Of a stretch of DNA of 64,000 nt, positions 1,882 through 59,779 are shown one piece after another; positions within the stretch are counted from its first letter, which is position 1; each line of letters starts with the position of its first letter. Location: NCBI GenBank assembly GCA_964016885.1, contig OZ024746.1:69440001-69504000 (forward strand), given 5' to 3'. The position numbers and the translations under genes are program-made. The DNA is from Eledone cirrhosa. Taxonomy: Eukaryota. The notes below the pieces were generated by a model, which was not told where the DNA came from, ran no database searches, and saw nothing but the letters and a program-made list of their open reading frames with translations.

Positions 1882-2012
1882 GATAAATCTACCAAAAAGT
1901 ACGGTAGTGTCCAATCCATATGAAGAACTCAATGTAATCCAAATATCATGAAAAGAGAAGATGTATTCAAACATTTTTTCGATGAAAAACACAGGAAAAC
2001 AGAGTCAAGATA

Positions 2013-2519
2013 AATTAATAAAAATAATGAATAAAAACAAAGAAACAGTTCGTTATATTAAAAAATTCATCATTTTACGATCGTTTCTAGGATATATATG
2101 TGTGTATTGGTATGTATATCATATAGATCTATGTAAAATTTTTACAAACTATCAGAGGGAATATACATACCTACACATATATATGCTGTCTTCAGAAATA
2201 ATGATATTTGTTCATTGAAAAAAACCAACAAAGATTTAATATAATCGGTCTGTTTGGAAACATGTTTTGAATTGACCAATAGAAAGGTAGTAAGTGGTCA
2301 AGATGGTAGAATAGTAGTAATGGAACTTTAAATTAGGGGTAGAGGAAGACAGCATATATATGTGTAGGTATGTATATTCCCTCTGATAGTTTGTAAAAAT
2401 TTTACATAGATCTATATGATATACATACCAACACACACATATATATCCTAGAAACGATCGTAAAATGATGAATTTTTTAATATAAGGAACTGTTTCTTTG
2501 TTTTTATTCATTATTTTTA

Positions 2520-2523
<4 letters not shown>
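2013..2523. repeat. Inverted duplication (~180 bp arms) of a hammerhead-bearing, Penelope-pLTR-like sequence
   Basis: ~2013-2193 is the reverse complement of 2345-2523; the near-identical opposite-strand ORFs 1961..2218 and 2236..2511 are a by-product. Confidence 0.8.
2067..2204 (-). ncRNA. Type I hammerhead ribozyme with long stem II
   Basis: Minus strand: UCAUUAUUU CUGAAGA [~100-nt stem II with AUAUAUAUGUGU/ACACAUAUAUAU and GGUAUGUAUAU/AUAUACAUACC helices] GAAA CGAUCG UA AAAUGAUGA; 9-bp stem I, palindromic stem III ACGAUCGU, GUA cleavage triplet. Confidence 0.75.
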
Positions 2524-2557
<34 letters not shown>

Positions 2558-2596
2558 ATATAAATGTGATGTCATCTCAGACCCTGATGAAGAGAG

Positions 2597-2629
<33 letters not shown>

Positions 2630-2632
<3 letters not shown>

Positions 2633-3612
2633 CTCTCTTCATCAGGGCCTGAGATGACATCACATTTATATACAATATCCTTTGTAAGGCATTTATTGCA
2701 GAAGGGACATGCAGCCTTATCGTGGCAGTTGCACAGGACCTCAGAACCGGGATTTCGGAGGTAGTAGACTTATTTAACTTAGTAATATTAATATTGGCTA
2801 AGTTCCTAGCTAGATTTGGTGTAGTGGAGTAAGAGAGTCTGATTGTATTCTTATTAAAGATGGTGTAGTACCTATGTTGGGTGGGGAAGTGTTTGTGCAA
2901 TAGAGTAAAGAAATGTTTTGCTATAGGTGTAGATACCTCGCAGTTGAATGGGGATTGTACCAGCTAATTTGCCTCTACCTATTCCTCCTGGGTGGGCGTG
3001 GGGCTATTCTGAGATAAGAGATCTTATCTTTAAAACCGCTACGGGCTAAGGCTTCGTTGTAATAGGGGGCCGCTGCCCTAAAGATATCCTCATTGGCGGA
3101 GAGGCCAGAGATCCTAAGGGAGACACTTTTAACTAAATTATCTGTGATGTTCTTGGGGTGATTCGAGTTAACGTCTATATATCTAAGAGATTCGTTAGGT
3201 TTGTGGTACGGATAATAAAGGGATGTTTCTAAATGGAGAGTTACATCTAAGAAGTTGGCTTTAGTTAAACTCGAATCTATAGTTATTCTGAGGCCTAGGT
3301 TATTGAAGAAAGCGTTAAGGTTTTTCCGTAACCCATCGGTAGTCCTGGGGTTAATTTTATGCAGGGCAAAGAGGCCGTCATTCCGGTATAATCCGCCTGT
3401 AAGGCCTGTGAAGAAGGTTTTCATCCGGTTAAGGATAAACAGGCCCACCAGATCACTAATCTCTGCCGAGTCACGAGCACCCATGCTGACATCGAAGGGA
3501 GTCTCCGATTTTTTGTTGATCCAGTAGGACGCGTTATGGTACAAAAAGGTCTTACGTGCATGGAGGATCACATCCTGCTCGGCGTCGGTTATGGTGGTTA
3601 GGTTTCTTGCGA
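2630..3612 (-). pseudogene. Penelope-like element, decayed RT C-terminal part and 3' end
   Basis: ORF 2975..3640: FDVSMGARDSAEISDLVG, GLYRNDGL (YRDD-like), NFLDVTL, YHKP..YIDVNSNHP are typical Penelope RT/thumb motifs; frameshifted continuation 2577..2900; both ends in (TA)n. Confidence 0.85.
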
Positions 3613-3639
3613 ATATATATATATATATATATATATACA

Positions 3640-5745
3640 AGTGGAAGCTTAGTAAAATCGAAGTTATATATATATATATAAGGAAAAAAGATAAAATTGA
3701 AAATGCAACTGGAGTCTTTTTTTTTTTTAAATATATTTATTTGGTTCCTTTACCGGTTTCACAGTTCTTGTGCTTTTCAAAAGTAGAATTGAGATGGAGG
3801 ATTTGTGGTTTTTCTCGCATCTGGTTGATGTTCGAATGTTACTTCTGTTTAATATGGAAAAAAGTGGCTCGAAATGCTAGGTTTTTAGAAAAGTAATTTG
3901 GTTGGTTGATGACTGTCATGTGAATAAGTATAATAAATTTCGCGCCAGTTCGCGTTACAAAGTTCTTATTATATTTGCCTTTAAAAAACGTGTGTGTGTG
4001 TGGGGGGGAGGGGGGGGGGGCTCAGATTGTTTTTTCATATATGAGTGAAGTTTGGTTGGTTGATGCAGTCACGTGAATCAGCTTTCGCGCCAGTCTGTGT
4101 TTGAATTTCTTTTTACTTAAAAAAGCTCACGAAGGCTTTTTTTTTATAAATGTAATTTGATTGGTTATAAATGAAATTATCACTGTTACGTGAACAAGTA
4201 CATTAAATTCCGCGCCGTATTTTGGAATTTTTTTGTAGCCATTTAGAGAATTTTGTGCCAAACAAAAGATAATGGTCAAGAAAAAGGGGATGGAAAGAAT
4301 TGTTCTGGTTCAGTGAGTATGGCTGATGTGGTGAAATGTAATTTGATTGGTTATAAATGAAATTATGACTGTCACGTGAACAAGTACATTAAATTTCGCG
4401 CCCGTATTTAGGAATTTCTTTTGTAGCCATTTAGAGAATTTTGTGCCAAACAAAAGATAATGGTCAAGAAAAACGGGATGGGGAGAATTGTTCCGGTTCA
4501 GTGAGTATGGCTGATGTGCTGGGGTGTCAAAATTCAGACTTTCTATTGAAATAAAGAAAGTAGAGATATGTATGTTTATTTGTGTTCTGGTGTGTGTGTG
4601 TGTGGGTGGGGGGGGTGTATGTGTGTGTGTGTGTGTGTGTGTAGGAAGATGATTCTATTAGTAGAAATGGGGGAGGGAGTTGTGTGTGTGTGTGTATGGA
4701 TGTTATATGTGTGTGTGTGTGTGGGGGGGGGGTATGGTTAGCATGTTAAGATGGAGAGAATATATATTTTTGTGTGTGTGAGTGTAGGAAAATGATTCTG
4801 TTAGTAGAAATGTGGAAAGGAGTTATGTGTGTGTGGGGGGTATTGTTATCATATTAAGGTGTTAGAGTATTAACGTATGTTAAGGTGTATTTAGCTCTGG
4901 TTTTTATTTTCGAATATAGAAGGTGTTATGTGTGTATGTATGTGTCTGTTTGGGTGGTTAGCATGTTATGGTGTTGACATAATGTATATTAAACTATATT
5001 TAATGCTGGTCTATATTTTTGAATAAACATATTTTCCTTATTTATTCGTATTTGTTCTGCTGCATTGTCAGCGCAAAGATAAAATGGGAAGACTTGGAAT
5101 TTGGGTGTCTTATTACTTGCGCATATGTCTAGATGTGCACTGAGTGGTATCTGTCTTGTGGTAGGGTCTCGTAATTGTTGGCGATGAATTGTCATTCTGT
5201 TTCTGTGTGAGTTTAGTTTGTCCTATATAATCTTCATTGCATCCTTTACATTTAATGGCATAAAGCAAATTTTTTGATGAGCAAGTGAAGTGATTTTTTA
5301 CAGCAAAATTTTGTCCTGATTGAAATGTATACATGTTGCCTTCAATGAGGTGAGTGCAGGTTCCACAATTAGAACGACCACATTTTTTGACAGTTTGTTG
5401 TGGGTTTGTGGTAGGTAATTTGGCATTGGTGTGTAATGTTTTTAGTGATTTCGGTTGTCTTTTGCTTTTGATTATTTTGTGTGTTTCAAGGGCTTTTTTC
5501 ATTCTTGGGTCTTGTTTCAATAGTGGGATGTTCTTGTGAATAATCTTGTAAGCTTCCGCATTTCTCGGGTTGTGTGTTGAGATATATAATAGAATATTGG
5601 ACGTACCTTGAATTTGTTTCTGTTTTCGTAATTCATCAATGCCTATTGCTTTAGCCCTTTCTATTCCGTTATTTATTAGTAATGGTGGGTACTGTCTTTC
5701 GAGCAGAATTTCCTTTAATTCTTGAAGTCTTTTATTTCGCGTTTC
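3640..5745 (-). mobile_element. Penelope-like element (Neptune-type) 3' part: Cys linker, GIY-YIG endonuclease and long 3' UTR/pLTR
   Basis: ORF 5113..5520 KCGRSNCGTCTH...NLLYAIKCKGCNEDYIGQT; frameshifted 4989..5195 with R..H..E.MFIQKYRPALN; downstream AC-rich UTR with tandem duplications (4140-4330 ~ 4335-4520). Confidence 0.85.
3745..3788 (-). ncRNA. Minimal hammerhead motif, U3-A8 variant, in the PLE 3' end
   Basis: Minus strand CUU UUGAAAA GCACAAGAACUGU GAAA CCGG UA AAG; palindromic stem III ACCGGU, only 3-bp stem I, AAUAAA just downstream. Confidence 0.5.
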
Positions 5746-6623: not shown

Positions 6624-6840
6624 AACGATCAACTTTCGTCAAATCGGACCGAGGGAACAATGTTTCCGTTGGTCTTTCCAATTGCTAATACTATCTATCG
6701 GTCGCAACTCCAGGTAGAAGGAGCAACGTGAAATAAAGTGTCTTGCTCAAGGACATAACGCATCGCCTGGTCCAGGAATCGAACTCACAACCTTACGATT
6801 GCGAATCCAATTCTCTAACCACTCAGCCACACGCCTTCAC
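6624..6840 (-). mobile_element. tRNA-derived SINE, family B
   Basis: Minus strand A box TGGCTGAGTGG, B box GAGTTCGATTCC, then TGTCCTTGAGCAAGACACTT; related copies at ~12320-12460, 41716-42000, 42790-42900, 50575-50760. Confidence 0.8.
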
Positions 6841-6859
6841 AATATATATATATATATAT

Positions 6860-7196
6860 TTATTAAAATAACAGATTAAAGTTTAAGCAAAGAATCGCTG
6901 CTTTCACCCTTAACGGGATCTTCTGAAACTAACAAAGTCAATCTGTAAACGCAGAAGTGGATATTTCAAAAAACGTTGCAACCGGAGGAAGACAGGAAGA
7001 CGATACTTTGGTTCGTGGAAACGTTCGCTGGCAAAGAACGGGAAAATACGAATATAATACGTCATTAATAGGAGCGGTGAAAAACAATTACGCGCAAAGA
7101 CAGAACCACGTTTATGGTATAAAAGAGGTCGTAGACTAATGTTCTCTTAGGTGGTTCATAGAGACGTTCTCTGGCAATGAACGAAAAAAAAACGAA
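6860..7196 (-). mobile_element. Non-coding hammerhead-bearing repeat (copy A)
   Basis: Near-identical to 49917-50248 and 8245-8470; no meaningful ORF; abuts (TA)n. Confidence 0.8.
6871..6946 (-). ncRNA. Extended type I hammerhead ribozyme, U4A core variant (copy A)
   Basis: ACAGAUUGA-CUUUGUU-AGUUU CAGAAGA U-CCC-GUUAA-GGG-U GAAA GCAG-CGAUUCU-UUGC UU AAACU-UUAAUCUGU: stems I (5+9 bp with 7-nt bulge), II and III all pair. Confidence 0.7.
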
Positions 7197-7684
7197 TGAG
7201 CATGAGCCAGAGTCGGTGATAGAAAACGATCAGGCGAAGGTGTTATGGGATTTTAGTATACAGACGGATAAGAAACTAGAACACAATAGGCCTGACCTGG
7301 TTGTTTTGGACAAGGAAAAAAAGATCGTGCCTGATTGTAGATGTAGCCTGCCCATTCGCCACGAGAGTGCAAGAAAAGGAGAGGGAGAAAATTAACCGAT
7401 ACCAGGACTTAAAGTGGGAGGTAAAAAGGATTTGGAACTGCCATGAAGTCAGAGTCGTCCCGATTGTCATAGGCGCACTAGGTACTATCTCAAAGAGTTT
7501 CCAAGGATGATTAAAGAAAGTTAGTCCAGCCCCGCTTTTTGGAACACTTCAAAAGGCATGCTTGCTGGGAACAGCAAGAACCCTCCGATACCTCCTGAAT
7601 ATCTGAGACTGCAGGTAGCGGCTTGATATTCATTTCAACAAACTTTCCAGTTAAATAACATCAATGACTGAGACTCAAAAGAAC

Positions 7685-7720
<36 letters not shown>
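7197..7720 (+). pseudogene. R4/Dong-clade LINE 3' fragment (restriction-like endonuclease) with (AAT)n tail
   Basis: VLWDFSIQTDKKLEHNRPDLVV..CLIVDVACP..EKINRYQDLKWE..VVPIVIGALG; tail aacaataataat. Confidence 0.85.
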
Positions 7721-7724
<4 letters not shown>

Positions 7725-7916
7725 GTAAAAATAAATGTGAAGACTAAAATCCAAGGAGGGCTCGAAAAGGATAAATATATATCAAATATATAAGAACCCT
7801 AGAGCAAATATTTATTAAAGTTTAAGTTTGCTTAAACTTTAATCTGTTATTTTAATATATATAAGTAAGTATGTTTTGAAACAGTGAGCAGGTTTGAAAT
7901 TAGAAAATAGAATAGC

Positions 7917-8241: not shown

Positions 8242-8244
8242 TTA

Positions 8245-8590
8245 TTTATTAAAATAACAGATTAAAGTTTAAGCAAAGAATCGCTGCTTTCACCTTTAAC
8301 GGGATCTTCTGCAACTAACAAAGTCAATCTGTGAACGCAGAAGTGAATATTTAAAAAAACGTTGCAACCGGAGGAAGACAGGAAGACGATACTTTGGTTC
8401 GTGGAAACGTTCCCTGGCAAAGAACGGTAAAAAACGAATATAATACGTCATTATTTGGAGCGGTGAAAAATAACCACGTAAATGGTAGAACTGAAGTCGT
8501 AGATTACGACTTCAGTTATACCATTTACGTGGTTTCGTCTTTGCGTGCAATTGTTCTACCCGCTCCACATACTACGACTTCAGTTAGTCA
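8245..8590 (-). mobile_element. Hammerhead-bearing repeat copy B with internal fold-back
   Basis: Hammerhead 8257-8332 (CAGAAGA kept, one mismatch each in stems I and II); 30-bp-arm hairpin 8472-8534, then inverted family sequence to ~8590. Confidence 0.75.
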
Positions 8591-10365: not shown

Positions 10366-10725
10366 AATTTAACTATGTTCTTAATTGCATTATCGTTGTT
10401 GTTGTTGTTATTACTGATGTTGTTGTTGTTGTTGTTGCTGCTGATGCTGTTGTTGTCGTCGCCATTAGTTTCGTTTAACCGTAGCTTATCTCGCATCAAG
10501 CAAGCCTTTGATTAAAGGCACTTCAACCATGATCTCTTGTGTTTTTACAGTATGCTGGATTAAATTAACCAATATGTCTTTTCTACATTCAAGACGGCAG
10601 GGTATGGCGAAGGCAAATTGGCTGCTAACTCTACCAAATCGAATGATCAGGTTAAAACTCCTTCCTTGACTAATGTGATAAAAACACTTGATACGTTTTA
10701 AATATAAATATATATTTCAAAGTAA

Positions 10726-10747
10726 TCTATATATCTAAAACAGAGAA

Positions 10748-10840
<93 letters not shown>

Positions 10841-11197
10841 GACTGACTCCCTAAAACTCGAGAACCACCCAACCGATTTTTTTCAAACTTTGAACAAAAA
10901 GAATTTCAAATTTTCAATGCCATAGGGACCACATTAGGCGCCGAACGTCGCGTCCTTATAATATTTGGTTGTGTATCTGGCTGTCTGCATTACGACATTA
11001 TGACGTTATCTGTGTGTGTGTATATATATGTGTATATATATAGTGTGTGTGTGTGTGTATATATATATATGTATATATATATTCATATAATTGTTCTGCA
11101 TCCCCTTGCATAGAACCACAAAGTTACTAAGACATAACATATATATTTGCTAGCATAGGTATACATCTGTATACATATGTTGGTAGATAAACTAATT

Positions 11198-11261
<64 letters not shown>

Positions 11262-11379
11262 TGTAACGTTTTTTTTTTCGAAATATTTACTTCTGTGTTC
11301 ACAGATTGAATTTTTTTAGTTTCAGAAGATCCCGTTAAGGGTGAAGGCAGCGGTTCTTTGCTTAAACTTTAATCTGTTA

Positions 11380-11427
<48 letters not shown>

Positions 11428-11874
11428 TATATTTGTGTACAGATATTTTTGCATACACAAAAACAAAATATAAACAGCAGCAAAAACAACAAAAAAGAGA
11501 GGGAACGCAATTACATGCTTTTGAAAAATCGTAATGCAAAATGATTTGCCTATTCACCCAAGGCGACTTCACTTTTCATTAGCTGTAACTATTGCTTTCA
11601 TTGTACCATAGCACAACAAATACATGTTCGGTTTCTCGAATGCCTTTTTACTTAACCCTATCCTCTTGGCTTTCGTGGGTTGAACATTTTACTCTCAGGC
11701 ACCCAATTAAGTTAAACCCCTGGTAATCTAAGACGAATTTTTGTTATAAGCACAACATGTAGACACCTTTCCCAGGCCGAGGTATTCCGTACTTCTCTGT
11801 ACTGTTTCAGAAAGGAGGGATAAACATACTAATCTATGTTTAGAATCCCGAGCAAGGCCGGGCCATTCTGCTAG
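10726..11874 (+). mobile_element. Non-autonomous Helitron carrying (TCTG)n and a hammerhead fragment
   Basis: A|TCTATATATC 5' end, subterminal hairpin cccgagcaaggccggg, CTAG|T 3' end; second copy on minus strand 44361-46610. Confidence 0.85.
11301..11376 (+). ncRNA. U4A hammerhead copy C inside the Helitron (A15.1 changed to G)
   Basis: acagattga..agttt CAGAAGA tcccgttaagggt GAAG gcagcggttctttgc TT aaact ttaatctgt. Confidence 0.55.
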
Positions 11875-12576
11875 TAATTCTATAAAATAGAATTATATAT
11901 ATGCTTATGACCGCCCACGTGCGCGCACGCCCCCCTCCCCCACACACACATGGATAGGTAGATTGATAGATGTGTGTGTGTGTGTGTGTGCATTGCTTTT
12001 GTTTCCCAACCTATCATGTCTTACTAATTTTACACGGACGTTTAAACTGATTAAATGAATAAATAGATTGACATGTCCTGCGTTGTCAATCAGCAACTCA
12101 CTTGGTTCAGTTCAGATAATTGTCGTTCTATCGCTTCTCTCCACGCCTGGTCATAAAACTGGTAAGTTATCTCCCTTACATTTAAAAAAATGACTGGGTT
12201 GTCTGTCCTTACAATTCAACAATCGCAGAGCCAGCGACAGAAAGCTTTTAACGTAGGCATGTTCAACAACAGCAATGAGTGAATGTGATTGATCCATCAG
12301 AAATCACAATTAAATATCCACTCAGGAAGTGTATTGTTTTCTTGTGCAAAATACTTACTTCATGTTGCTCCTTCTACCAGGAGTCACAAGTGATAGGTAG
12401 TATCCGCAAGGGAAAGACCAATGGAAACATAGTTTCCTTGGTTTGATTTGCTGATCAGCTCTGTTTTATTTTTATCCAAGCACAACAACTCCAAGTTTGC
12501 TGACACATATCACAACTCGTTTCCTCAGACTCACATTTTGATAGATGTTAGTGTGTGTAGAGAGAGAGAGAGAGGG

Positions 12577-14393: not shown

Positions 14394-14594
14394 TTAGTTA
14401 TACTATTTATGGTTATGTAAACACAAAACCTTAAGCAGTTGTAAGTATTTTACACACACCCTAAATAGTGGTAGGCAGTAATGTATTACTACCTTATTAC
14501 CAGTAAGTTAAGTAGCTCAATGTAAAAACATCAGATGATTTACAGAGCAGTTATATGAAATATAAGAATCAAAGAACTGTTCAAAACATTATTG

Positions 14595-14641
14595 TGCTTA
14601 CAGCTGTTTCCTCCAAACCGAGGTTTGGATTCTTCGGAGCA
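14595..14641 (-). ncRNA. Minimal type I hammerhead, U4C variant
   Basis: Minus strand UGCU CCGAAGA A-UCCAAAC-CUCG-GUUUGGA-G GAAA CAGCUG UA AGCA; 7-bp stem II, palindromic stem III ACAGCUGU. Confidence 0.65.
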
Positions 14642-14989
14642 ATTTATTAATGCATGGACAGTTATATGACCTCCTTTTCAGCCGAGAGACATACCAACAC
14701 ATATTCAAACATTGATACATATTCAAACATTGTGGGTCAACATTCATTACAGAATTTAGATTGGCAGTACACACTTTGAGATTACATTTATATTAATAGG
14801 TACAATCAAAAATCAAAGATATAGGTTAAAGTACAACATGAAGATAAGTGGTTATATAGTGCAAATGTTATATGTGTGGCACGCATGTGCGTCTTGTTTA
14901 TATAGTGTGGCAGAGAGATATGTGTGGTAGAGGCACTTAGGTAGGTAAATAAGAGTGTTAGGTTGGTAGATCTATATATATATATATAT

Positions 14990-16282: not shown

Positions 16283-16735
16283 TATACGGCCCTTTATGAT
16301 CCGAGTTCAAATCCCGCCGAGGTTAACTTTGCCTTTCTTCGTTACGGGGTCGATTAAATAAAGCACCATTAATGCGCTGGGGTAATTGCTGGCCTTGTGC
16401 CAAAAGTAGAAACATTATTATAACTTTGCCTTTCATCCTTACGGGGTCGATAAAATAAAGCACCAGTAATGCGCTGAGGTAATTGCTGGCCTTGTGCCTA
16501 AAAATAGAAACAATTATTATTATTATTGATATTTAAAGAGCGGTGGATTGTCAGTATCGGTAGAGGGTCGAGCGCTATGCTTTGAAGCATAGAGTTACCT
16601 CCCTTTATGAGCTGAGTTCAAATCCCGCCTAGGTTAACTTTGCCTTTCATCCTTACGGGGTCGATAAAATAAAGTACCAGTAATGCACTGGGATAATTGC
16701 TGGCCTGGTGCCAAAAAGTAGAAACAATTATTATT
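16283..16735 (+). mobile_element. Three tandem family A SINE copies
   Basis: Repeated gttcaaatcccgcc..ggccttgtgcc..agaaaca(att)n units. Confidence 0.8.
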
Positions 16736-16749
16736 GATATTTTTACTTG

Positions 16750-18432
<1,683 letters not shown>

Positions 18433-26033: not shown

Positions 26034-26084
<51 letters not shown>

Positions 26085-26352
26085 GTTCTTTGAGTCTCAG
26101 TCATTGATGTTAGTTAACTGGAAAGTTTGTTGAAATGAATATCAAGCCACTACCTGCAGCCTCAGATATTCAGGACGTTTCGGAGGGTTCTTGCTGTTCC
26201 CATCAAGCATGCCTTTTGAAGTGTTCCAAAAAGCGGGGCGGGGCCAATTTTCTTTAACCATCCCTGGAAACTTTTTGAGATAGTACCTAGTGCGCCTATG
26301 ACAATCGGGACCACTTTGACTTCATGGCAGTTACAAATCCTTTTTACCTCCC

Positions 26353-26403
<51 letters not shown>

Positions 26404-29278: not shown

Positions 29279-29354
<76 letters not shown>

Positions 29355-29558
29355 ATAATAATAAATTTGAAGACTAAAATCCATATATATATATATATAA
29401 AATACATATATATACATACACACACATATATATATATATATATATTGGTGTGCCCGGCCGACTGAACTCACTCGATATGCAAATTAGGCTGCTCAGCCGT
29501 TAATATGCATAAGGAAAGTATATACTTTCAGACGTTCAACCATCAGGCAGGAAGGTAT

Positions 29559-34288: not shown

Positions 34289-34349
34289 TATTTTATCTGA
34301 TGAGGGCGTATCAAAGTTTTGGTACACTTGAAATATATATAATAGAATA
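34289..34349 (+). ncRNA. Type I hammerhead ribozyme with canonical core
   Basis: UAUUUUAU CUGAUGA GGGCGUAUCAA-AGUU-UUGGUACACUU GAAA UAUAUA UA AUAGAAUA; 8-bp stem I, ~10-bp stem II, palindromic AUAUAUAU stem III. Confidence 0.75.
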
Positions 34350-43788: not shown

Positions 43789-44360
43789 CTCACAATGTTA
43801 TACAAGATAGATTGAACCTGTAATTGAAATGTCCAACCATATCACATACTGTGTCATTGATTCTGTGTGAAGATTACATTAAGGCTACACATGTCTGCGG
43901 AATACTCAGCCACTCTAATACAATATGGAATGTAATTCAAAAGCCTAGCCATGCCGCACTGTTTCGTCTAAGGGGTTGTGTTAAGGGTACTCGTGTCTGT
44001 AGAATATTCAGCCTCTTGCACGATAATAGATGAACTATATCTGTAATTCAATGATGCAGCCTTGTCACATATTGTGTCACACTGACTGTATCTGAGGATT
44101 ACATTAAGAGTACACGTGTCTGTGGAATACTCAACCAGTTAAACGTTAATTCAAGAGCTGGCTGTTCCGTTGATTAAAGGACTGAATTCTCGTCGTTGAA
44201 ACCGACAGAGGACCCAGCATATCTCTCTTAAAATGCAAAGCTTCTATTTTTTGTGTTCATAAATGTGTGTGTATCTATGTGGATGTATAAGCGTGTATGT
44301 GTGTGTAAGAGAGACTTTTGTTGTGACAAACATTTACTATACAATAATTTTAGATATTAA

Positions 44361-46610
44361 CTAGCAGAATGGCCCGGCGTTGCTCGGGATTCTAAACATA
44401 GATTGGCATGTTTATCCCTCCTTTCTGAAACAGTACAGTACCTCGGCCTGGGGATGATGTCTACATTTTGTGCTTATAAAAAAAATTCGTCGTAGATTAC
44501 CAGGGGTTTAACTTAATTGGGTGCCTGAGAGTACAATGAAAGCAATAGTTACAGAGCAGTAAGCATGTGGGACTGCAGTGGTGGAGAGTGGTGTTGTTTT
44601 ACTCCTTTCAATGTTTCGTCGTATGTTCACCAATTGAAGCAGAAGTCCTAATGAAAAGTGAAGTCGCCTTGGGTGAATAGGCAAATAATTTTCCATTACG
44701 ATTTTTCAAAAGCATGTAATTGCGTTCCCTCTCTTTTTTTGTTGTTGTTTTTGCTGCTGTTTATATTTTGTTTTTGTGTATACAAAAATATCTATACACG
44801 AATATATAATTATATACATATATATATATTAAAATAACAGATTAAAGTTTAAGCGATGAATCGCTGCTTTCACCCTTAACGGGATCTTCTGAAACTAAAA
44901 AAATCAATCTGTGAACGCAGAGGTAAATATTTCGAAAAACGTTACACACTATATATACACACACACTATACACCCCCACCCTCCCCCCCACACACACAGA
45001 GATAGCGTCATAATGTCGTAATGCAGACAGATATATTTCTTTATTAGCCACAAGGGCGCACAAGAAAAGGGGACAATACAAAGACATGCCGGGGATTTTA
45101 CATACAGTTGTGTAAAAAATATAAAAACAAACAATTACAACAATCGAAATCCCCAATAGGGGGGGGGCACACATGGGTTGTTTAATACCCCGTCGATAGA
45201 ACAACCCTCAACTCCAGGAGCGTGTTGTGCAAGTGCTCCTTTCTTCCTTTTGCTCTCTTCTTCAACGTACAGGCTTATAAACAGAGAAGGCCCAATCACT
45301 CGGGCCATTTTCGCTTCATTCACCCACCTTTCAGTAAATTTACTGGGGTGCAGTGCCTCTCTCTCCACCCTAATTCTCCTTCTAAAGTGATACTTAAAGA
45401 AGGGAATCAATTGTTGTCCGGAGAGAAAGGCATCTGTTCTCAGTCCTCTCAACCTCGTCCACCATATAACTTCTTTCACCATAGCCACTGTACAGAGGAA
45501 AACCGCCTCTCTATCGTTTTTGAAAGAGGCTGGCGATTTGATCCTTACTATGGACTCGGCAGTCAACTGGATTTGTCCCATACGCGACAGCAGTTGTTCT
45601 GCATAGTTCCACAGGTCGGTTAAGCCCGAGCAGTGTACAATTGCGTGCAGGACTGTTTCAATATCCTGCGCGCATCTTGGACACGTCCTCTTGGAAGGAT
45701 CCCTGCCGGGGTGTCCGTGCCTGTAGATCTTGTCACGAACCGGTAGAGCTTCTCGGTAGCACTGCCAGGCCAGGGACCTCTGGAAGTTGTCTATAGGTCC
45801 CGGGCGGAAAGTCCTACCAAACAGACTGGTGAGCTCATCGTCTTCGACGCCCAGAGTCTCTCCGAGCACGTCGTCGCCCTTGTAACGTACAATCCCTCTA
45901 TAAAATGTCGAAGTGGAGTCTCCACTGATTGCTGCGCCCGCTTGCCAGAGGACTGTGAGCGCCTGAGCGCATTCAATGTGCCAGGCGCCCATCATTTTCG
46001 GTCTTTTCATGACCCAGGACTGCAGCTCCGTCAGCGAGACGAGCTGTGGGAAAGCCTGTCTCACAAACGGTGCCCACACCGGTTGGGGGTCGGTGAGGAA
46101 TACCTGGAGATGCCGCAGCCTCAGCGCATGTTTGCGCATTATCAGCCACGGCATTCCCAGCCCTCCGCTGGAAGGGTGCTGACAGCAGACGGATCTCCTC
46201 ACCAGCGGAGCCTGCTTCTTCCACAGAAACTGGAAGAGCATGCGTTCCATCTTGCGGAGGACAAGGCACGACAGTCAAGCGGTAGTAGATGACGGACGCT
46301 ATGAATGTGTTCGCCACCTTCGCTCGACCTTTCAAGGACAGTTTGCACTTCTGGGTGAGTGCAAACACCTTGGCCGTGACCTCGTTCCAGTTTTTCTCCA
46401 CCTGGAGGCCTGGACTGAACCAAACCCCGAGCAATTTCACCGGTCCGTCCGTCCAGCGTCCAACTACGCTGTCGGACGTCATCGGCTTGCCTGTCCACGT
46501 ACCGAGTTGCAAACCGACAGACTTGTCCGGATTTATTTTTGCTCCCGTCAGCGTTTCGTATTCTTTCAGTAATGCAGACAGACAGACATTCTCTGTTTTA
46601 GATATATAGA
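44361..46610 (-). mobile_element. Non-autonomous Helitron, second copy, interrupted by a Tx1-like LINE
   Basis: Reverse complement of the 10726-11874 family with TC..CTAG ends at an AT target; contains hammerhead copy D at 44837-44912. Confidence 0.85.
45032..46568 (-). pseudogene. Tx1/L1-clade LINE 3' fragment (diverged subfamily) with 14-bp target-site duplication
   Basis: ORFs 45973..46632 and 45135..46250 (CPRC..ETVLHAIVHC) homologous to 24585-25712; gtaatgcagacaga at 45018-45031 and 46569-46582. Confidence 0.9.
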
Positions 46611-49796: not shown

Positions 49797-49828
<32 letters not shown>

Positions 49829-49832
<4 letters not shown>

Positions 49833-50575
49833 ATAATAATAAAATTGAAGACTAAAATCCAGAGAGGGCTCGATAAGGAAAATATATATCAAATATATAA
49901 GAACCGAAGAGCAAATATTTATTAAAATAACAGATTAAAGTTTAAGCAAAGAATCGCTGCTTTCACCCTTAACGGGATCTTCTGAAACTAACAAAGTCAA
50001 TCTGTAAACGCAGAACTGGATATTTCAAAAAACGTTGCAACCGGAGGAAGACAGGAAGACGATACTTTGGTTCATGGTGACGTTCGCTGGCAAAGAACGG
50101 GAAAAAACGAATAATACGTCATTAATAGGAGCGGTGAAAAACAATTACGTGCAAGGACAGAACCACGTTTATGGTATAAAAGAGGTCGTAGACTAAAGTT
50201 CTCTAAGTGGTGCATAGAGACGTTCTCTGGCAATGAACGAAAAAACGAAGATAATAAGTCATATGTGGAGCGTGGAGAACAATAGCGTGCAAAGACAAGA
50301 CCACGTAAATGGTATAGCAGAAGTCGTAGACTAAAATTCTAACTAGGAGACCGAATGAATCTCCGCTACAGAGTTAAGAACAAAGTAAATAAATACAATA
50401 CAGAAGTAATAGGAACAAATAAATACATACACGCAAACAGATACGTACATACACAAGCATACGCAAAACCTTACCATAGGTATACAAAACCACGCACATA
50501 TAAATATGTGTATGTGTGTTGCTTGTGTACAAATAAATAAATAATTATATAAACGTATATAAGTAAATAAATACG
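49829..50575 (-). mobile_element. Longest copy (E) of the non-coding hammerhead-bearing repeat
   Basis: Includes the segment seen separately at 7722-7815 and 29351-29382, the hammerhead at 49930-50005 and an internal ~70-bp tandem duplication. Confidence 0.8.
49930..50005 (-). ncRNA. Extended type I hammerhead, U4A core variant (copy E)
   Basis: Identical to copy A over the 76-nt motif. Confidence 0.7.
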
Positions 50576-50760
50576 TGGATTCGCAATCGAGAGGTTGTGA
50601 GTTCGATTCCTGGACCGGGCGATGCGTTATGTCCTTGAGCAAGACACTTTATTTCACGTTACTCCTTCTACCTGGAGTTGCGACCGATAGAGAGTATTAG
50701 CAATTGGAAAGACCAACGGAAACATTGTTTCCTCGGTCCGATTTGACGAAAGTCGATCGA
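50575..50760 (+). mobile_element. Family B SINE, 5'-truncated
   Basis: GAGTTCGATTCC B box, tgtccttgagcaagacactt; reverse complement of 6624-6810. Confidence 0.8.
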
Positions 50761-51360
50761 CTATATATATATATATATACGAAGGTCGGCTGAAAAGTTC
50801 ATAAGTTGACCAAGAATGAGCCATCATGTGTGTATGTATGTGTGTGTGTAAAAGTCTAGTGACAAAACGGCAAGTTTTTTAAAAGATATTCTTAAGAATC
50901 ATATACTTGTTACAAACACTGTGCAAGAGAATTCCTGCATTGCAACACATTAACACATTGAATTAGGTATATTATATACAGCAGACTATAACTTAGGGTG
51001 TGGTGTATACTCGAGAATATTTACTGAAATATATACAATTTATAAACTGATTTCCTTCTTTCTGTGCAGTTGCCAACCATAATAACACATTTGTTAATGT
51101 TATAGCGTTAAATTATGAAAGATTATACATAACATTTTGGCAACGATAGCTTTGTATACAGCTGATAAATATTTACCATGATTAAACTAGATGTACAGTC
51201 ATGATTGCGATTTATGTTACTGTTTAGTGAACGAGAGAAGGATGGTATATATTCCTATTTTAAGAGCCACAGAAATAGCTAGGAAGAAGAGAGTGAAGAA
51301 AGTATCCCCAAATTAGGGATTTTTTCTAAATGCTTGCAACAGAGTAACTCTACTAAAGTT

Positions 51361-54300
51361 ACCCAAAGTCCACATGGTCGTGTTAAACCAGGTGACAGAT
51401 AAGTCAACTACCCAAGGTCCACATGGTGCTGTTAAACCAGGTGATAGATTAAGTCAACTACCCAAGGTTCACATGGTGCTGTTAAACCAGGTGATAGATT
51501 AAGTCAACTACCCAAGGTCCACATGGTTGTATTAAACCAGGTGATAGATTAAGTCAACTACCCAAAGTCCACATGGTGCTGTTAAACCAGGTGATAGATT
51601 AAGTCAACTACCCAAAGTCCACATGGTGCTGTTAAACCAGGTGATAGATTAAGTCAACTACCCAAGGTTCACATGGGGCTGTTAAACCAGGTGATAGATT
51701 AAGTCAACTACCCAAAGTCCACATGGTGCTGTTAAACCAGGTGATAGATTAAGTCAACTACCCAAGGTCCACATGGTGCTGTTAAACCAGGTGATAGATT
51801 AAGTCAACTACCCAAGGTCCACATGGTGCTGTTAAACCAGGTGATAGATTAAGTCAACTACCCAAGGTTCACATGGTGCTGTTAAACCAGGTGATAGATT
51901 AAGTCAACTACCCAAGGTCCACATGGTGCTGTTAAACCAGGTGATAGATTAAGTCAACTACCCAAGGTCCACATGGTCGTATTAAACCAGGTGATAGATT
52001 AAGTCAACTACCCAAGGTCCACATGGTCGTATTAAACCAGGTGATAGATTAAGTCAACTACCCAAGGTCCACATGGTACTGTTAAACCAGGTGATAGATT
52101 AAGTCAACTACCCAAGGTCCACATGGTGCTGTTAAACCAGGTGATAGATTAAGTCAACTACCCAAGGTTCACATGGTGCTGTTAAACCAGGTGATAGATT
52201 AAGTCAACTACCCAAGGTCACATGGTGCTGTTAAACCAGGTGATAGATTAAGTCAACTACCCAAGGTCCACATGGTGCTGTTAAACCAGGTGATAGATTA
52301 AGTCAACTACCCAAGGTCCACATGGTGCTGTTAAACCAGGTGATAGATTAAGTCAACTACCCAAGGTCCACATGGTGCTGTTAAACCAGGTGATAGATTA
52401 AGTCAACTACCCAAGGTCCACATTGTCGTATTAAACCAGGTGATAGATTAAGTCAACTACCCAAGGTCCACATGGTGCTGTTAAACCAGGTGATAGATTA
52501 AGTCAACTACCCAAGGTCCACATTGTCGTATTAAACCAGGTGATAGATTAAGTCAACTACCCAAGGTTCACATGGTGCTGTTAAACCAGGTGATAGATTA
52601 AGTCAACTACCCAAGGTCCACATGGTCGTATTAAACCAGGTGATAGATTAAGTCAACTACCCAAATCCACATGGTGCTGTTAAACCAGGTGATAGATTAA
52701 GTCAACTACCCAAGGTTCACATGGTGCTGTTAAACCAGGTGATAGATTAAGTCAACTACCCAAGGTTCACATGGTGCTGTTAAACCAGGTGATAGATTAA
52801 GTCAACTACCCAAGGTCCACATGGTGCTGTTAAACCAGGTGATAGATTAAGTCAACTACCCAAGGTCCACATGGTGCTGTTAAACCAGGTGATAGATTAA
52901 GTCAACTACCCAAGGTCCACATGGTGCTGTTAAACCAGGTGATAGATTAAGTCAACTACCCAAGGTCCACATGGTCGTATTAAACCAGGTGATAGATTAA
53001 GTCAACTACCCAAGGTCCACATGGTGCTGTTAAACCAGGTGATAGATTAAGTCAACTACCCAAGGTCCACATGGTCGTATTAAACCAGGTGATAGATTAA
53101 GTCAACTACCCAAGGTCCACATGGTCGTATTAAACCAGGTGATAGATTAAGTCAACTACCCAAGGTCCACATGGTACTGTTAAACCAGGTGATAGATTAA
53201 GTCAACTACCCAAGGTCCACATGGTGCTGTTAAACCAGGTGATAGATTAAGTCAACTACCCAAGGTCCACATGGTACTGTTAAACCAGGTGATAGATTAA
53301 GTCAACTACCCAAGGTCCACATGGTACTGTTAAACCAGGTGATAGATTAAGTCAACTACCCAAGGTCCACATGGTTGTATTAAACCAGGTGATAGATTAA
53401 GTCAACTACCCAAGGTCCACATGGTTGTATTGAACCAGGTGACAGATAAGTCAACTACCCAAGGTCCACATGGTGCTGTTAAACCAGGTGATAGATTAAG
53501 TCAACTACCCAAGGTCCACATGGTTGTATTAAACCAGGTGATAGATTAAGTCAACTACCCAAGGTCCACATGGTTGTATTAAACCAGGTGATAGATTAAG
53601 TCAACTACCCAAGGTCCACATGGTTGTATTAAACCAGGTGACAGATAAGTCAACTACCCAAGGTCCACATGGTGCTGTTAAACCAGGTGATAGATTAAGT
53701 CAACTACCCAAGGTCCACATGGAGCTGTTAAACCAGGTGATAGATTAAGTCAACTATCCAAGGTCCACATGGTCGTATTAAACCAGGTGATAGATTAAGT
53801 CAACTACCCAAGTATCACATGGTGCTGTTAAACCAGGTGATAGATTAAGTCAACTACCCAAGATTCACATGGGGCTGTTAAACCAGGTGATAGATTAAGT
53901 CAACTACCCAAGGTCCGCATGGTCGTATTAAACCAGGTGATAGATTAAGTCAACTATCCAAGGTCCACATGGTGCTGTTAAACCAGGTGATAGATTAAGT
54001 CAACTACCCAAGGTTCACATGGTGCTGTTAAACCAGGTGATAGATTAAGTCAACTACCCAAGGTCCACATGGTGCTGTTAAACCAGGTGATAGATTAAGT
54101 CAACTACCCAAGGTCCACATGGTCGTATTAAACCAGGTGATAGATTAAGTCAACTACCCAAGGTCCACATGGTGCTGTTAAACCAGGTGATAGATTAAGT
54201 CAACTACCCAAGGTCCACATGGTGCTGTTAAACCAGGTGATAGATTAAGTCAACTACCCAAGGTCCACATTGTCGTATTAAACCAGGTGATAGATTAAGT

Positions 54301-57300
54301 CAACTACCCAAGGTTCACATGGTGCTGTTAAACCAGGTGATAGATTAAGTCAACTACCCAAGGTCCACATGGTGCTGTTAAACCAGGTGATAGATTAAGT
54401 CAACTACCCAAGGTTCACATGGTGCTGTTAAACCAGGTGATAGATTAAGTCAACTACCCAAGGTTCACATGGTGCTGTTAAACCAGGTGATAGATTAAGT
54501 CAACTACCCAAGGTCCACATGGTGCTGTTAAACCAGGTGATAGATTAAGTCAACTACCCAAGGTCCACATGGTGCTGTTAAACCAGGTGATAGATTAAGT
54601 CAACTACCCAAGGTCCACATTGTCGTATTAAACCAGGTGATAGATTAAGTCAACTACCCAAGGTTCACATGGTGCTGTTAAACCAGGTGATAGATTAAGT
54701 CAACTACCCAAGATTCACATGGGGCTGTTAAACCAGGTGATAGATTAAGTCAACTACCCAAGGTCCGCATGGTCGTATTAAACCAGGTGATAGATTAAGT
54801 CAACTATCCAAGGTCCACATGGTGCTGTTAAACCAGGTGATAGATTAAGTCAACTACCCAAGGTTCACATGGTGCTGTTAAACCAGGTGATAGATTAAGT
54901 CAACTACCCAAGGTCCACATGGTGCTGTTAAACCAGGTGATAGATTAAGTCAACTACCCAAGGTCCACATGGTCGTATTAAACCAGGTGATAGATTAAGT
55001 CAACTACCCAAGGTCCACATGGTGCTGTTAAACCAGGTGATAGATTAAGTCAACTACCCAAGGTCCACATGGTCGTATTAAACCAGGTGATAGATTAAGT
55101 CAACTACCCAAGGTCCACATGGTCGTATTAAACCAGGTGATAGATTAAGTCAACTACCCAAGGTCCACATGGTACTGTTAAACCAGGTGATAGATTAAGT
55201 CAACTACCCAAGGTCCACATGGTGCTGTTAAACCAGGTGATAGATTAAGTCAACTACCCAAGGTTCACATGGTGCTGTTAAACCAGGTGATAGATTAAGT
55301 CAACTACCCAAGGTTCACATGGTGCTGTTAAACCAGGTGATAGATTAAGTCAACTATCCAAGGTCCACATGGTCGTATTAAACCAGGTGATAGATTAAGT
55401 CAACTACCCAAGGTCCACATGGTGATGTTAAACCAGGTGATAGATTAAGTCAACTACCCAAGGTCCACATGGTGCTGTTAAACCAGGTGATAGATTAAGT
55501 CAACTACCCAAGGTTCACATGGTGCTGTTAAACCAGGTGATAGATTAAGTCAACTACCCAAGGTCCACATGGTGCTGTTAAACCAGGTGATAGATTAAGT
55601 CAACTACCCAAGGTCCACATGGTGCTGTTAAACCAGGTGATAGATTAAGTCAACTACCCAAGGTTCACATGGTGCTGTTAAACCAGGTGATAGATTAAGT
55701 CAACTACCCAAAGTCCACATGGTCGTATTAAACCAGGTGATAGATTAAGTCAACTAACCAAGGGCTACATGGTGCTGTTAAACCAGGTGATAGATTAAGT
55801 CAACTACCCAAGGTCCCACATGGTCGTATTAAACCAGGTGATAGATTAAGTCAACTACCCAAGGTCCACATGGTGCTGTTAAACCAGGTGATAGATTAAG
55901 TCAACTACCCAAGGTTCACATGGTGCTGTTAAACCAGGTGATAGATTAAGTCAACTACCCAAGGTCCACATGGTCGTATTAAACCAGGTGATAGATTAAG
56001 TCAACTACCCAAGGTTCACACGGGCTGTTAAACCAGGTGATAGATTAAGTCAACTACCCAAGTTCACATGGTGCTGTTAAACCAGGTGATAGATTAAGTC
56101 AACTACCCAAGGTTCACATGGGGCTGTTAAACCAGGTGATAGATTAAGTCAACTACCCAAGGTCCACATGGTCGTATTAAACCAGGTGATAGATTAAGTC
56201 AACTACCCAAGGTTCACATGGTGCTGTTAAACCAGGTGATAGATTAAGTCAAACTATCCAAGGTCCACATGGTCGTATTAAACCAGGTGATAGATTAAGT
56301 CAACTACCCAAGGTCCACATGGTGCTGTTAAACCAGGTGATAGATTAAGTCAACTACCCAAGGTCCACATGGTCGTATTAAACCAGGTGATAGATTAAGT
56401 CAACTACCCAAGGTCCACATTGTCGTATTAAACCAGGTGATAGATTAAGTCAACTACCCAAATCCACATGGTGCTGTTAAACCAGGTGATAGATTAAGTC
56501 AACTACCCAAGGTCCACATGGTCGTATTAAACCAGGTGATAGATTAAGTCAACTACCCAAGGTCCACATGGTCGTGTTAATCCAGGTGATAGATTAAGTC
56601 AACTACCCAAGGTCCACATGGTGCTGTTAAACCAGGTGATAGATTAAGTCAACTACCCAAGGTTCACATGGTCGTATTAAACCAGGTGATAGATTAAGTC
56701 AACTACCCAAGGTCCACATGGTGCTGTTAAACCAGGTGATAGATTAAGTCAACTACCCAAAGTCCACATGGTCGTATTAAACCAGGTGATAGATTAAGTC
56801 AACTACCCAAGGTCCACATGGTGCTGTTAAACCAGGTGATAGATTAAGTCAACTACCCAAGGTCCACATGGTGCTGTTAAACCAGGTGATAGATAAAGTC
56901 AACTACCCAAGGTCCACATGGTGCTGTTAAACCAGGTGATAGATTAAGTCAACTACCCAAGGGTCCACATGGTCGTATTAAACCAGGTGATAGATTAAGT
57001 CAACTACCCAAGGTCCACATGGTGCTGTTAAACCAGGTGATAGATTAAGTCAACTACCCAAGGTCCACATGGTCGTGTTAAACCAGGTGATAGATTAAGT
57101 CAATTACCCAAGGTCCACATGGTGCTGTTAAACCAGGTGATAGATTAAGTCAACTACCCAAGGTCCACATGGTCGTATTAAACCAGGTGATAGATTAAGT
57201 CAACTACCCAAGGTCCACATGGTGCTGTTAAACCAGGTGATAGATTAAGTCAACTACCCAAGGTCCACATGGTGCTGTTAAACCAGGTGATAGATTAAGT

Positions 57301-58298
57301 CAACTACCCAAGGTCCACATGGTCGTATTAAACCAGGTGATAGATTAAGTCAACTACCCAAGGTCCACATGGTCGTGTTAAACCAGGTGATAGATTAAGT
57401 CAACTACCCAAGGTTCACTTGGGGCTGTTAAACCAGGTGATAGATTAAGTCAACTACCCAAGGTCCACATGGTCGTATTAAACCAGGTGATAGATTAAGT
57501 CAACTACCCAAGGTTCACATGGTGCTGTTAAACCAGGTGATAGATTAAGTCAACTACCCAAGGTCCACATGGTGCTGTTAAACCAGGTGATAGATTAAGT
57601 CAACTACCCAAGGTCCACATGGTCGTATTAAACCAGGTGATAGATTAAGTCAACTACCCAAGGTCCACATGGTGCTGTTAAACCAGGTGATAGATTAAGT
57701 CAACTACCCAAGGTCCACATGGTCGTATTAAACCAGGTGATAGATTAAGTCAACTACCCAAGGTTCACATGGGGCTGTTAAACCAGGTGATAGATTAAGT
57801 CAACTACCCAAGGTTCACATGGGGCTGTTAAACCAGGTGATAGATTAAGTCAACTACCCAAGGTTCACATGGGGCTGTTAAACCAGGTGATAGATTAAGT
57901 CAACTACCCAAGGTTCACATGGGGCTGTTAAACCAGGTGATAGATTAAGTCAACTACCCAAGGTCCACATGGTGCTGTTAAACCAGGTGATAGATTAAGT
58001 CAACTACCCAAGGTTCACATGGGGCTGTTAAACCAGGTGATAGATTAAGTCAACTACCCAAGGTTCACATGGGGCTGTTAAACCAGGTGATAGATTAAGT
58101 CAACTACCCAAGGTTCACATGGTGCTGTTAAACCAGGTGATAGATTAAGTCAACTACCCAAGGTTCACATGGGGCTGTTAAACCAGGTGATAGATTAAGT
58201 CAACTACCCAAGGTTCACATGGGGCTGTTAAACCAGGTGATAGATTAAGTCAACTACCCAAGGTCCACATGGTCGTGTTAAACCAAGTGACAGATTAA
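51361..58298. repeat. 50-bp tandem satellite, about 139 units
   Basis: Consensus aagtcaactacccaaggtccacatggtgctgttaaaccaggtgatagatt; length/50 gives ~139; no unique spacers, no ORF. Confidence 0.97.
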
Positions 58299-58734: not shown

Positions 58735-58856
58735 AGTTTTAATATAGATGAGATTCTACTGGACTAGAACTGTTTCATTCTTTAGAAATCATCAGATTCC
58801 TGATGATTTCTAAAGAATGAAACAGTTCTAGTCCTGTAGAATCTCATCTATATTAA

Positions 58857-59292: not shown

Positions 59293-59446
59293 CATAGATT
59301 TTGAGTTTATGTTGGTTGTATACCAACACCCCTCAGTATGCAGGCTGGAGCACTCGACGAAGTGCGCAGGTTGGTTTGGTTACTCCGGAGTAGTGTAAAA
59401 TAAAGTTAAATAAAAGTCAAATGATTAAAATTTAGCTTCGTTTATT

Positions 59447-59501
59447 ACTGCTATATATATTTCAGTGACAGCCATCTTTGGCTGTGACCTCTTCAGGCAG
59501 T
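59447..59501 (-). ncRNA. Type I hammerhead ribozyme, canonical core
   Basis: ACUGC CUGAAGA GGUCACAGCC-AAAGAU-GGCUGUCACU GAAA UAUAUA UA GCAGU then AAUAAA. Confidence 0.8.
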
Positions 59502-59671
59502 TTGAATTAGTATGGTATAGACAAGTACATATGTTGTTTAGGTGTATGATATTGATATGACTCCAGTTCCCCAGTGAATTAACAACCCAACAAGGAACTG
59601 GGCATATCAGAGTATTGACAATATCATACACCTAAACAACATATGTACTTGTCTATACCATACTAATTCAA

Positions 59672-59726
59672 ACTGCCTGAAGAGGACACAGCCAAAGATG
59701 GCTGTCACTGAAATATATATAGCAGT
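59672..59726 (+). ncRNA. Type I hammerhead ribozyme, canonical core (mirror copy)
   Basis: ACUGC CUGAAGA GGACACAGCC-AAAGAU-GGCUGUCACU GAAA UAUAUA UA GCAGU then AAUAAA at 59727. Confidence 0.8.
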
Positions 59727-59779
59727 AATAAACGAAGCTAAATTTTAATCATTTGACTTTTATTTAACTTTATTTTATA

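Follow-up and report, generated by a model that had tools for sequence, protein, structure and literature searches.

What kind of element carries a hammerhead ribozyme with a changed catalytic core, and does such a ribozyme still cut? These questions are raised by positions 6871-6946 of the 64,000-nucleotide stretch of Eledone cirrhosa DNA analyzed here (the window). On the minus strand this sequence can form stem I (AGUUU/AAACU, continued by a 9-bp distal helix with two G-U pairs and a 7-nt bulge), stem II (CCC/GGG with a GUUAA loop flanked by a U.U mismatch) and a 5-bp stem III, with a CUU triplet and a predicted cut between 6885 and 6884. In the hammerhead numbering of core positions used here, three helices of type I architecture are formable around C3-N4-G5-A6-N7-G8-A9, G12-A13-A14 and A15.1-U16.1-H17, and the core reads CAGAAGA, with A at position 4. 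The initial annotation listed five copies of the repeat, at 6871, 8257, 11301, 44837 and 49930. All are present and near-complete over 76 nt, with identities of 93.5-100%, and CAGAAGA is read in 5/5 as claimed. The complete fold was correctly described for 6871-6946, but only two of the five copies are intact, and the minus strand given for the repeat applies to the 6871 copy but not to that at 11301, which lies on the plus strand. The features of the family in the window are as follows.

6871-6946, minus strand: hammerhead motif, intact copy; core CAGAAGA at 6925-6919, A4 at 6924, predicted cut 6885/6884.
6930, minus strand: putative transcription start and capped RNA 5' end, the first base of the stem I 5' strand (L096:3601), from genome-wide junction counts.
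6931-6946, minus strand: 5' strand of the distal helix and 7-nt bulge, upstream of the putative start and thus expected only in read-through (3' pLTR) RNA.
6850-7189, minus strand: 5'-truncated Penelope-like 3' end (3'UTR and hammerhead) terminating in (AT)n, 95.6% identical to the intact locus L096.
7718-7863, no strand assigned: sixth, partial copy, an inverted tail (7718-7819) fused to the 3' part of the hammerhead (7827-7863).
8243-8571, minus strand: copy 2, truncated (8243-8479), with damaged stems I and II, plus a short inverted 3'UTR piece (8505-8571).
11274-11398, plus strand: copy 3, with A15.1 changed to G, a passenger within a larger composite repeat.
29349-29383, minus strand: tail-end fragment of 35 nt.
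44818-44946, minus strand: copy 4, with damaged stem III, in a composite repeat as for copy 3.
49827-50576, minus strand: copy 5, with 660 bp of 3'UTR, an intact hammerhead (49930-50005) and a ~88-nt tail reaching the second of the two 3' end sites; 98.3% identity with L096.

These copies are dispersed 5'-truncated element ends with 91-98% identity to L096. One stem I pair and one stem II pair are broken in the 8257 copy, and one stem III pair in the 44837 copy. The copies at 11301 and 44837 have in common ~640 bp of flanking repeat (80% identity), and are therefore passengers of one composite repeat rather than independent insertions; among loci collected from this genome, the 3' part of the hammerhead adjoins 14 of 17 matches to this flank. 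The composite repeat (10700-11890 and 44347-45030) contains a (GTCT)n microsatellite and has a CTAG-containing end, which we take to be Helitron/Helentron-associated. A link between the hammerhead repeat and the adjacent RLE-type ORF fragment at 7222-7600 was ruled out, as that fragment lies on the opposite strand and comes from another element. It is part of a non-LTR retrotransposon of RLE type, of which a broken 3' end is present (7222-7734, plus strand) with a (TAA)n tail and an RPD...IVDVA motif, presumably Dong/R4-like, and has relatives at 16727-17140, 18091-18429, and 26069-26356. The window also holds a satellite at 51360-58298, with 139 copies of a 50-bp unit and 94% matches.

The A at position 4 was proposed to be the family consensus and not decay, and genome-wide counts bear this out. 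An exact 30-mer is found in the 3.0-Gb genome of the organism 17,933 times with A4, 71 times with T, and 110 times with C or G (18,114 in total), while the reversed pattern used as a control gives 0; among the 100 C/G4 matches listed, 37 C and 63 G were counted by eye. A4 is also present in 134/134 informative copies among 156 distinct copies picked through anchors outside the hammerhead, and contigs of four other organisms display no difference from A4 at a 15% threshold, with thin coverage in two of the four. The invariant U4 of the CUGA turn is accordingly not the state of this family. A separate or ancestral U4 subfamily was considered and rejected, since 71 T against 110 C/G is background level; the 30 U4 loci that were fetched have the flanks of the family, and many are found at junctions. 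It was also considered that A4 creates a used 3' splice site (TTTCAG|A), and no junction was found at that position. The 346 motifs found by descriptor in the collected loci of this genome form 27 clusters. The target cluster contains 161 A and 23 T, the latter mostly from a search aimed at U4, and the remaining ones comprise one C4 family, a single C4 match, a weak two-member A4 match, and otherwise U4.

The C4 family is itself represented in the window, at 14592-14644 (minus strand), by a hammerhead with the core CCGAWGA and a long, varying stem II. Six of seven aligned copies (75-100% identity; also at L328, L291, L269, L257, L094, and L184) have C4, and the seventh has U4. With C4 fixed in a second family of the same genome, position 4 may tolerate more than has been assumed. 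Canonical CUGA hammerheads are found in other repeats at 58793-58845 (plus), 34290-34348 (plus), 59445-59503 (minus), and 59670-59728 (plus). A literature search, covering mostly papers available without subscription, found no report of a U4A or CAGA-core hammerhead; U4A is absent from the available part of PMC11014351, and the available part of PMC13282606 makes no mention of hammerheads. The family, perhaps without its hammerhead, may already be in the Repbase/Dfam catalogues.

When the loci are extended upstream they lead into an ORF encoding a reverse transcriptase (RT) and a GIY-YIG endonuclease. The extension proposed earlier as a check for a linked Penelope ORF thus gave a positive answer, an intact ORF of 709 amino acids being found in L096 and in other intact copies, and the description of the repeat as ORF-less holds within the window only. 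We regard it as practically certain that the parent is a Penelope-like element (PLE), an autonomous one in which the repeat is the hammerhead of the pLTR. The assignment to a Penelope pLTR-type homologue of type I has been borne out by the A4 hammerheads that flank the intact ORF of L096, ~195 nt before the ATG and ~935 nt past the stop codon. In L096 an (AT)n tract is followed by an inverted piece (1831-1961), a partial tandem copy ending in a hammerhead (1962-3675), the tail and 5'UTR, the ORF, a 3'UTR of ~935-940 nt, the second hammerhead of the 3' copy, and (AT)n. L064 has a similar layout, and the combination of pLTR, inverted copy, and tail is that of an EN+ PLE. Just upstream of the hammerhead, the 3'UTR contains a 138-bp tandem duplication, ~79% identical (L096 3250-3522, corresponding to window 50068-50340). 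With the endonuclease half as query, 65,012 candidates came up at first look; 150 of them were scored, and several of these have open frames of 713 codons. No U4 was seen among the family hammerheads of 11 long-ORF loci, and A4 was found in 39/39 and 61/61 hammerheads of two locus sets selected by protein.

A model of the ORF (pLDDT 88.5) has telomerase RT (TERT) as its best Foldseek match (E 1.4e-8), and the single ORF carries both YRDD346 and YIG598, that is, the telomerase-like RT and C-terminal GIY-YIG that define EN+ Penelope-like elements. Pfam searches with three pieces of the ORF and a PDB sequence search gave nothing significant; a homologue of the ORF, P0102, has a Pfam match to GIY-YIG. 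No relatives were found in the viral contigs searched. By its motifs the element matches the Hydra clade: RWR37, DKT115, CxCx5C564 (CNCRNRADC564), YIG598, CxxC662 (CDLC662), and CxH690 (CKH690) are all present, and the (AT)n/(TA)n flanks are the insertion target of this clade. Its pLTR hammerhead is in the homologous place, but with a CAGAAGA core instead of the canonical one. Hydra-clade elements (Hydra-1_Obim, Hydra-1_Ajap, Penelope-x_HM), as far as they are described in the available part of PMC8557442, likewise have a ~700-residue ORF with RT and GIY-YIG, the RWK-like (here RWR), DKT, CxCx5C, CxxC, and CxH motifs, (TA)n targets, a partial tandem and inverted 5'-truncated structure with a tail, and a type I pLTR hammerhead where a U.U often flanks stem II. 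The present family differs from them in having A4 for U4, G15.2-C16.2 and CUU for C-G and GUH, a non-palindromic 5-bp stem III with a 7-nt loop, a ~940-nt 3'UTR, and a ~88-nt tail. It is distinct from Hydra-1_Obim, which has a different hammerhead; the similarity to the Hydra-1_Obim rows was judged by eye.

Judging from these and other relatives, A4 is derived within this lineage. CUGA is found in 26/26 listed Hydra rows of file S2 of Craig et al. (PMC8557442). Among metagenomic relatives with ~40% identity, a hammerhead was found in 58 of 79 loci, and 61 of 64 distinct motifs have U4; the others are one C4 and two weak U3-A4 motifs resembling matches in shuffled sequence, while C3-A4 does not occur. 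In 59 of the 64 the pair corresponding to G15.2-C16.2 is C-G, so that the family carries a paired swap. Closer to hand, sister Hydra-type families in the same genome (~50% amino acid identity) have their CUGAWGA core as far from the ATG as here; they too have the U.U mismatch, with a 4-bp stem III and other helix sequences. The hammerhead at 58800 belongs to such a family. A sister Hydra-type element is also represented by part of its ORF (2632-3613, minus strand; 53% identity over the RT), which ends in an inverted repeat enclosing (AT)n, at 2552-2677. Hydra-like metagenomic elements with U3-A8 covariant cores (L442, L446, L448) and one with a C4 core (L403:2668) were also observed.

Rfam scans of the whole window and of 6840-7000 found no hammerhead family at E<=10. 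A covariance model trained only on 31 unrelated metagenomic relatives of the motif, whose strong pairing partly reflects their selection via a pairing descriptor, recognizes three of the five window copies at 21.4 bits (E ~0.005), scores the one at 11301 with 17.6 bits, and does not detect that at 8257; natural U4 copies of the family score 30.1 bits. The hammerhead fold was calculated at -13.0 kcal/mol, 2.1 above the minimum free energy (MFE) of -15.1, with a stem I pair probability of ~0.08, and the MFE has a z-score of -0.63 against shuffles. Three canonical sister hammerheads likewise miss their own MFE, so this property does not discriminate. No compensatory stem changes were found within the copies of the family. 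The extended stem I is formable with its 9-bp helix and 7-nt bulge, but nothing independent speaks for the extension: the helix has a pair probability of ~0.99 in the isolated 76-mer and 0.03 or less in longer contexts, it displays no covariation among family copies, the bulge, which in an extended, tertiary-stabilised hammerhead would make contact with loop II, varies among subfamilies (2/7 sites), and no comparable distal helix was seen by eye in the canonical sister families.

The ends of the copies bear on the RNA from which they were made. Of 156 copies, 83 end at L096 3670-3678 and 56 at 3758-3765, next to (AT)n, which places two 3' end sites ~25 and ~115 nt beyond the predicted cut. Patterns for 5' junctions, with two required non-template bases upstream, were matched genome-wide. 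The first base of stem I gave 1,261 matches, against 174 for the predicted cut and 200 for a control site 8 nt upstream of the cut; among 30 loci inspected for each, 30, 29, and 25 were true junctions, respectively. The 30 copies with the stem I junction are mostly 75 or 164 nt, and none exceeds 165 nt. G stands immediately before stem I in 18 of 30 loci, at a position where T is the template base; a preceding G is seen in 10 of 60 controls (p=7e-5). A G preceding a 5' junction matches the cap-G signature of reverse transcription, and the RNA would thus have its capped 5' end at window position 6930; terminal transferase activity is another possible source of a G without template. With the pile-up at the start of stem I, and not at the cut, the likely template is a capped RNA that has not been cut. 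Penelope and Chlamys are known to have start sites inside their pLTRs, and among the literature search results listed there was no report of a start at hammerhead stem I.

The sister families extend this pattern. Their 5' junctions cluster at -7 to -2 from C3, with TATAAATA ~29 nt upstream of the cluster. In a small sample of the canonical U4 sisters no junction was found at the cut (+39), the nearest being at +34 to +36. The canonical sisters also lack a cut-site junction, and the test therefore shows that uncut RNA is copied, and not that A4 is slower than U4. TATA is mildly enriched upstream of the metagenomic hammerheads (20 of 43 matches at -48 to -33), which was not counted as support. 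With a start at stem I the mRNA would begin with the hammerhead and would lose its cap when cut; the distal helix and bulge, lying upstream of the putative start, would be absent from promoter-made RNA and present only in the read-through 3' copy.

The sequence is constrained from about the same point. Counting as variant those sites where a variant is common to at least 8% of copies, and removing 18 anchor sites each from the upstream and tail counts, 72 of 625 sites are variant in the 3'UTR (11.5%) and 30 of 258 just upstream. The hammerhead without its bulge has 0 variant sites out of 69 (p=6e-4 vs the 3'UTR), the bulge 2 of 7, and the tail 2 of 65. With 2/16 variable sites, the 16 nt preceding the putative start are at the background rate of the 3'UTR. 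The transcribed leader is thus conserved as a whole, loops included, and since the non-ribozyme tail is conserved as well the constraint is not assignable to catalysis or to selection on the fold.

The reading ranked first, with a probability of about 0.55, is that in a lineage with fixed U4A the ribozyme is strongly slowed and kept within a conserved 5' leader, and that the element is copied from capped, uncut RNA. The pLTR promoter would start transcription at the first base of stem I, making the hammerhead the first ~50 nt of the capped RNA. The element protein would then, by analogy with PAc in vitro, nick (TA)n and begin reverse transcription at either downstream site. Priming in the 5' leader would give the mini-copies of 75 or 164 nt that halt at the cap, and priming in the downstream read-through pLTR would copy the 3'UTR and ORF. 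Fast cutting would strip the cap or separate the priming sites from the ORF, and a slow core might be tolerated or even favored. The family has been amplified to ~18,000 copies or more despite A4.

On indirect grounds cleavage is more probably slow or absent than fast, and the ranking follows from published observations. A deep mutational scan in vitro, made pairwise on a type III hammerhead whereas the present motif is of type I, found low activity in all CUGA-turn mutants except a C3:G8 swap (PMC9901934). U4 contacts the A6-N7 phosphate, and a viroid U4C hammerhead is slow in vitro and sufficient in vivo (PMC3088659). Mutating the hammerhead of PAc, the Poseidon element of Anolis carolinensis, did not affect insertion in vitro (Frangieh et al., 2024; PMC11167929), and PLE hammerheads are generally slow (PMC4209133). 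PAc resembles the present family in having two internal RT start sites around the tail, AT-rich targets, an unprocessed RNA template, and no read ends at the hammerhead cut; it belongs to another clade, has a canonical core, and its hammerhead overlaps the start of the ORF instead of being found ~195 nt upstream (PMC11167929). Perreault et al. (2011) described rare core changes with reduced activity, namely U4C, A6C, U3-A8, and U10.1.U11.1 (PMC3088659). U4A was not found in the part of that work available, and here it is fixed in ~18,000 or more copies and in several organisms.

Three other explanations have to be weighed against a slowed ribozyme. The initial annotation favored a non-autonomous retrozyme amplified through circular RNA. 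Metazoan non-LTR retrozymes, described in partly available sources as non-coding tandem hammerhead units of 150-450 bp with circular RNA (PMC7229834; bioRxiv 10.64898/2026.07.22.740005), do resemble the family in their type I hammerhead, high copy number, and relation to PLE pLTRs, and the window copies have no ORF. The motif, however, flanks full 709-residue ORFs, as in L096, so that the family is autonomous, and its copies, dispersed or inverted, are truncated ends of an element with an ORF; they stop at fixed sites past the cut and not at hammerhead-to-hammerhead boundaries of tandem units. A retrozyme is for these reasons very improbable, and this part of the annotation was overturned. Tandem hammerhead repeats of the retrozyme type do occur in this genome, in the form of 310-bp and ~490-bp units with a canonical type I hammerhead each (L061:7077-9202 and L061:3105-6236).

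A ribozyme that is dead, its sequence being kept by overlapping core promoter, 5'UTR, and RT-binding or priming functions while the fold is irrelevant, would explain why conservation begins at the putative start and covers loops and tail as much as stems, why compensatory changes are missing in the family, and why the hammerhead is not the MFE fold; Naiads, moreover, proliferate without canonical hammerheads (PMC8557442, in the part available). Against it, every helix is still formable and at G15.2-C16.2 both bases of the C-G seen in 59 of 64 relatives have been exchanged, and drift might be expected over the time in which 11.5% of 3'UTR sites became variant, unless each base is otherwise used. 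We consider it fairly unlikely. At the other extreme the A4 hammerhead might be fully active, with compensation for the change coming from the distal helix, from the 5-bp, non-palindromic stem III, or from the element protein when bound; cleavage would then trim read-through or decap leaders and so limit the element, and cut RNAs would leave no trace in the genome. The other core bases and three helices are intact without a common variant, A4 is held in the contigs of the four other organisms (two thinly covered), and the distal helix is stable in the isolated 76-mer. The PAc hammerhead is reported to cut only with its protein (PMC11167929, available in part), which makes protein rescue of an A4 hammerhead possible, and the viroid U4C case points the same way. 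This has to be set against the missing excess of 5' junctions at the cut, the near-invariance of U4 in relatives, the low activity of CUGA mutants, and a distal helix that dissolves in longer contexts and whose 5' strand is missing from RNA starting at 6930. Full activity is unlikely, and it is equally doubtful that U4A still cuts, through the element protein or the read-through distal helix, weakly at the capped 5' end and more strongly at the 3' end.

Whichever holds, this is a real, high-copy core variant fixed in its lineage, in a ribozyme type and a retroelement class that were already known. The role of hammerheads in endonuclease-bearing PLEs is stated to be unclear (PMC8557442, as far as available). 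One genome offers a natural comparison between a successful U4A family, sisters that share its architecture but have canonical cores, and, as a third group, hammerheads with U4C, and the value of the family is as a natural test of the need for cleavage in PLE hammerheads. The junction census, in addition, maps the likely capped start at stem I from DNA alone. Should the A4 ribozyme prove slow or dead, an element of this kind can multiply to tens of thousands of copies without needing cleavage. Should it cut, the core consensus now accepted is drawn too narrowly, and entire high-copy families escape descriptors restricted to CUGANGA; together with the C4 family, position 4 would then be a tuning knob for Penelope-like elements, and elements of the Hydra clade would generally start transcription at hammerhead stem I.
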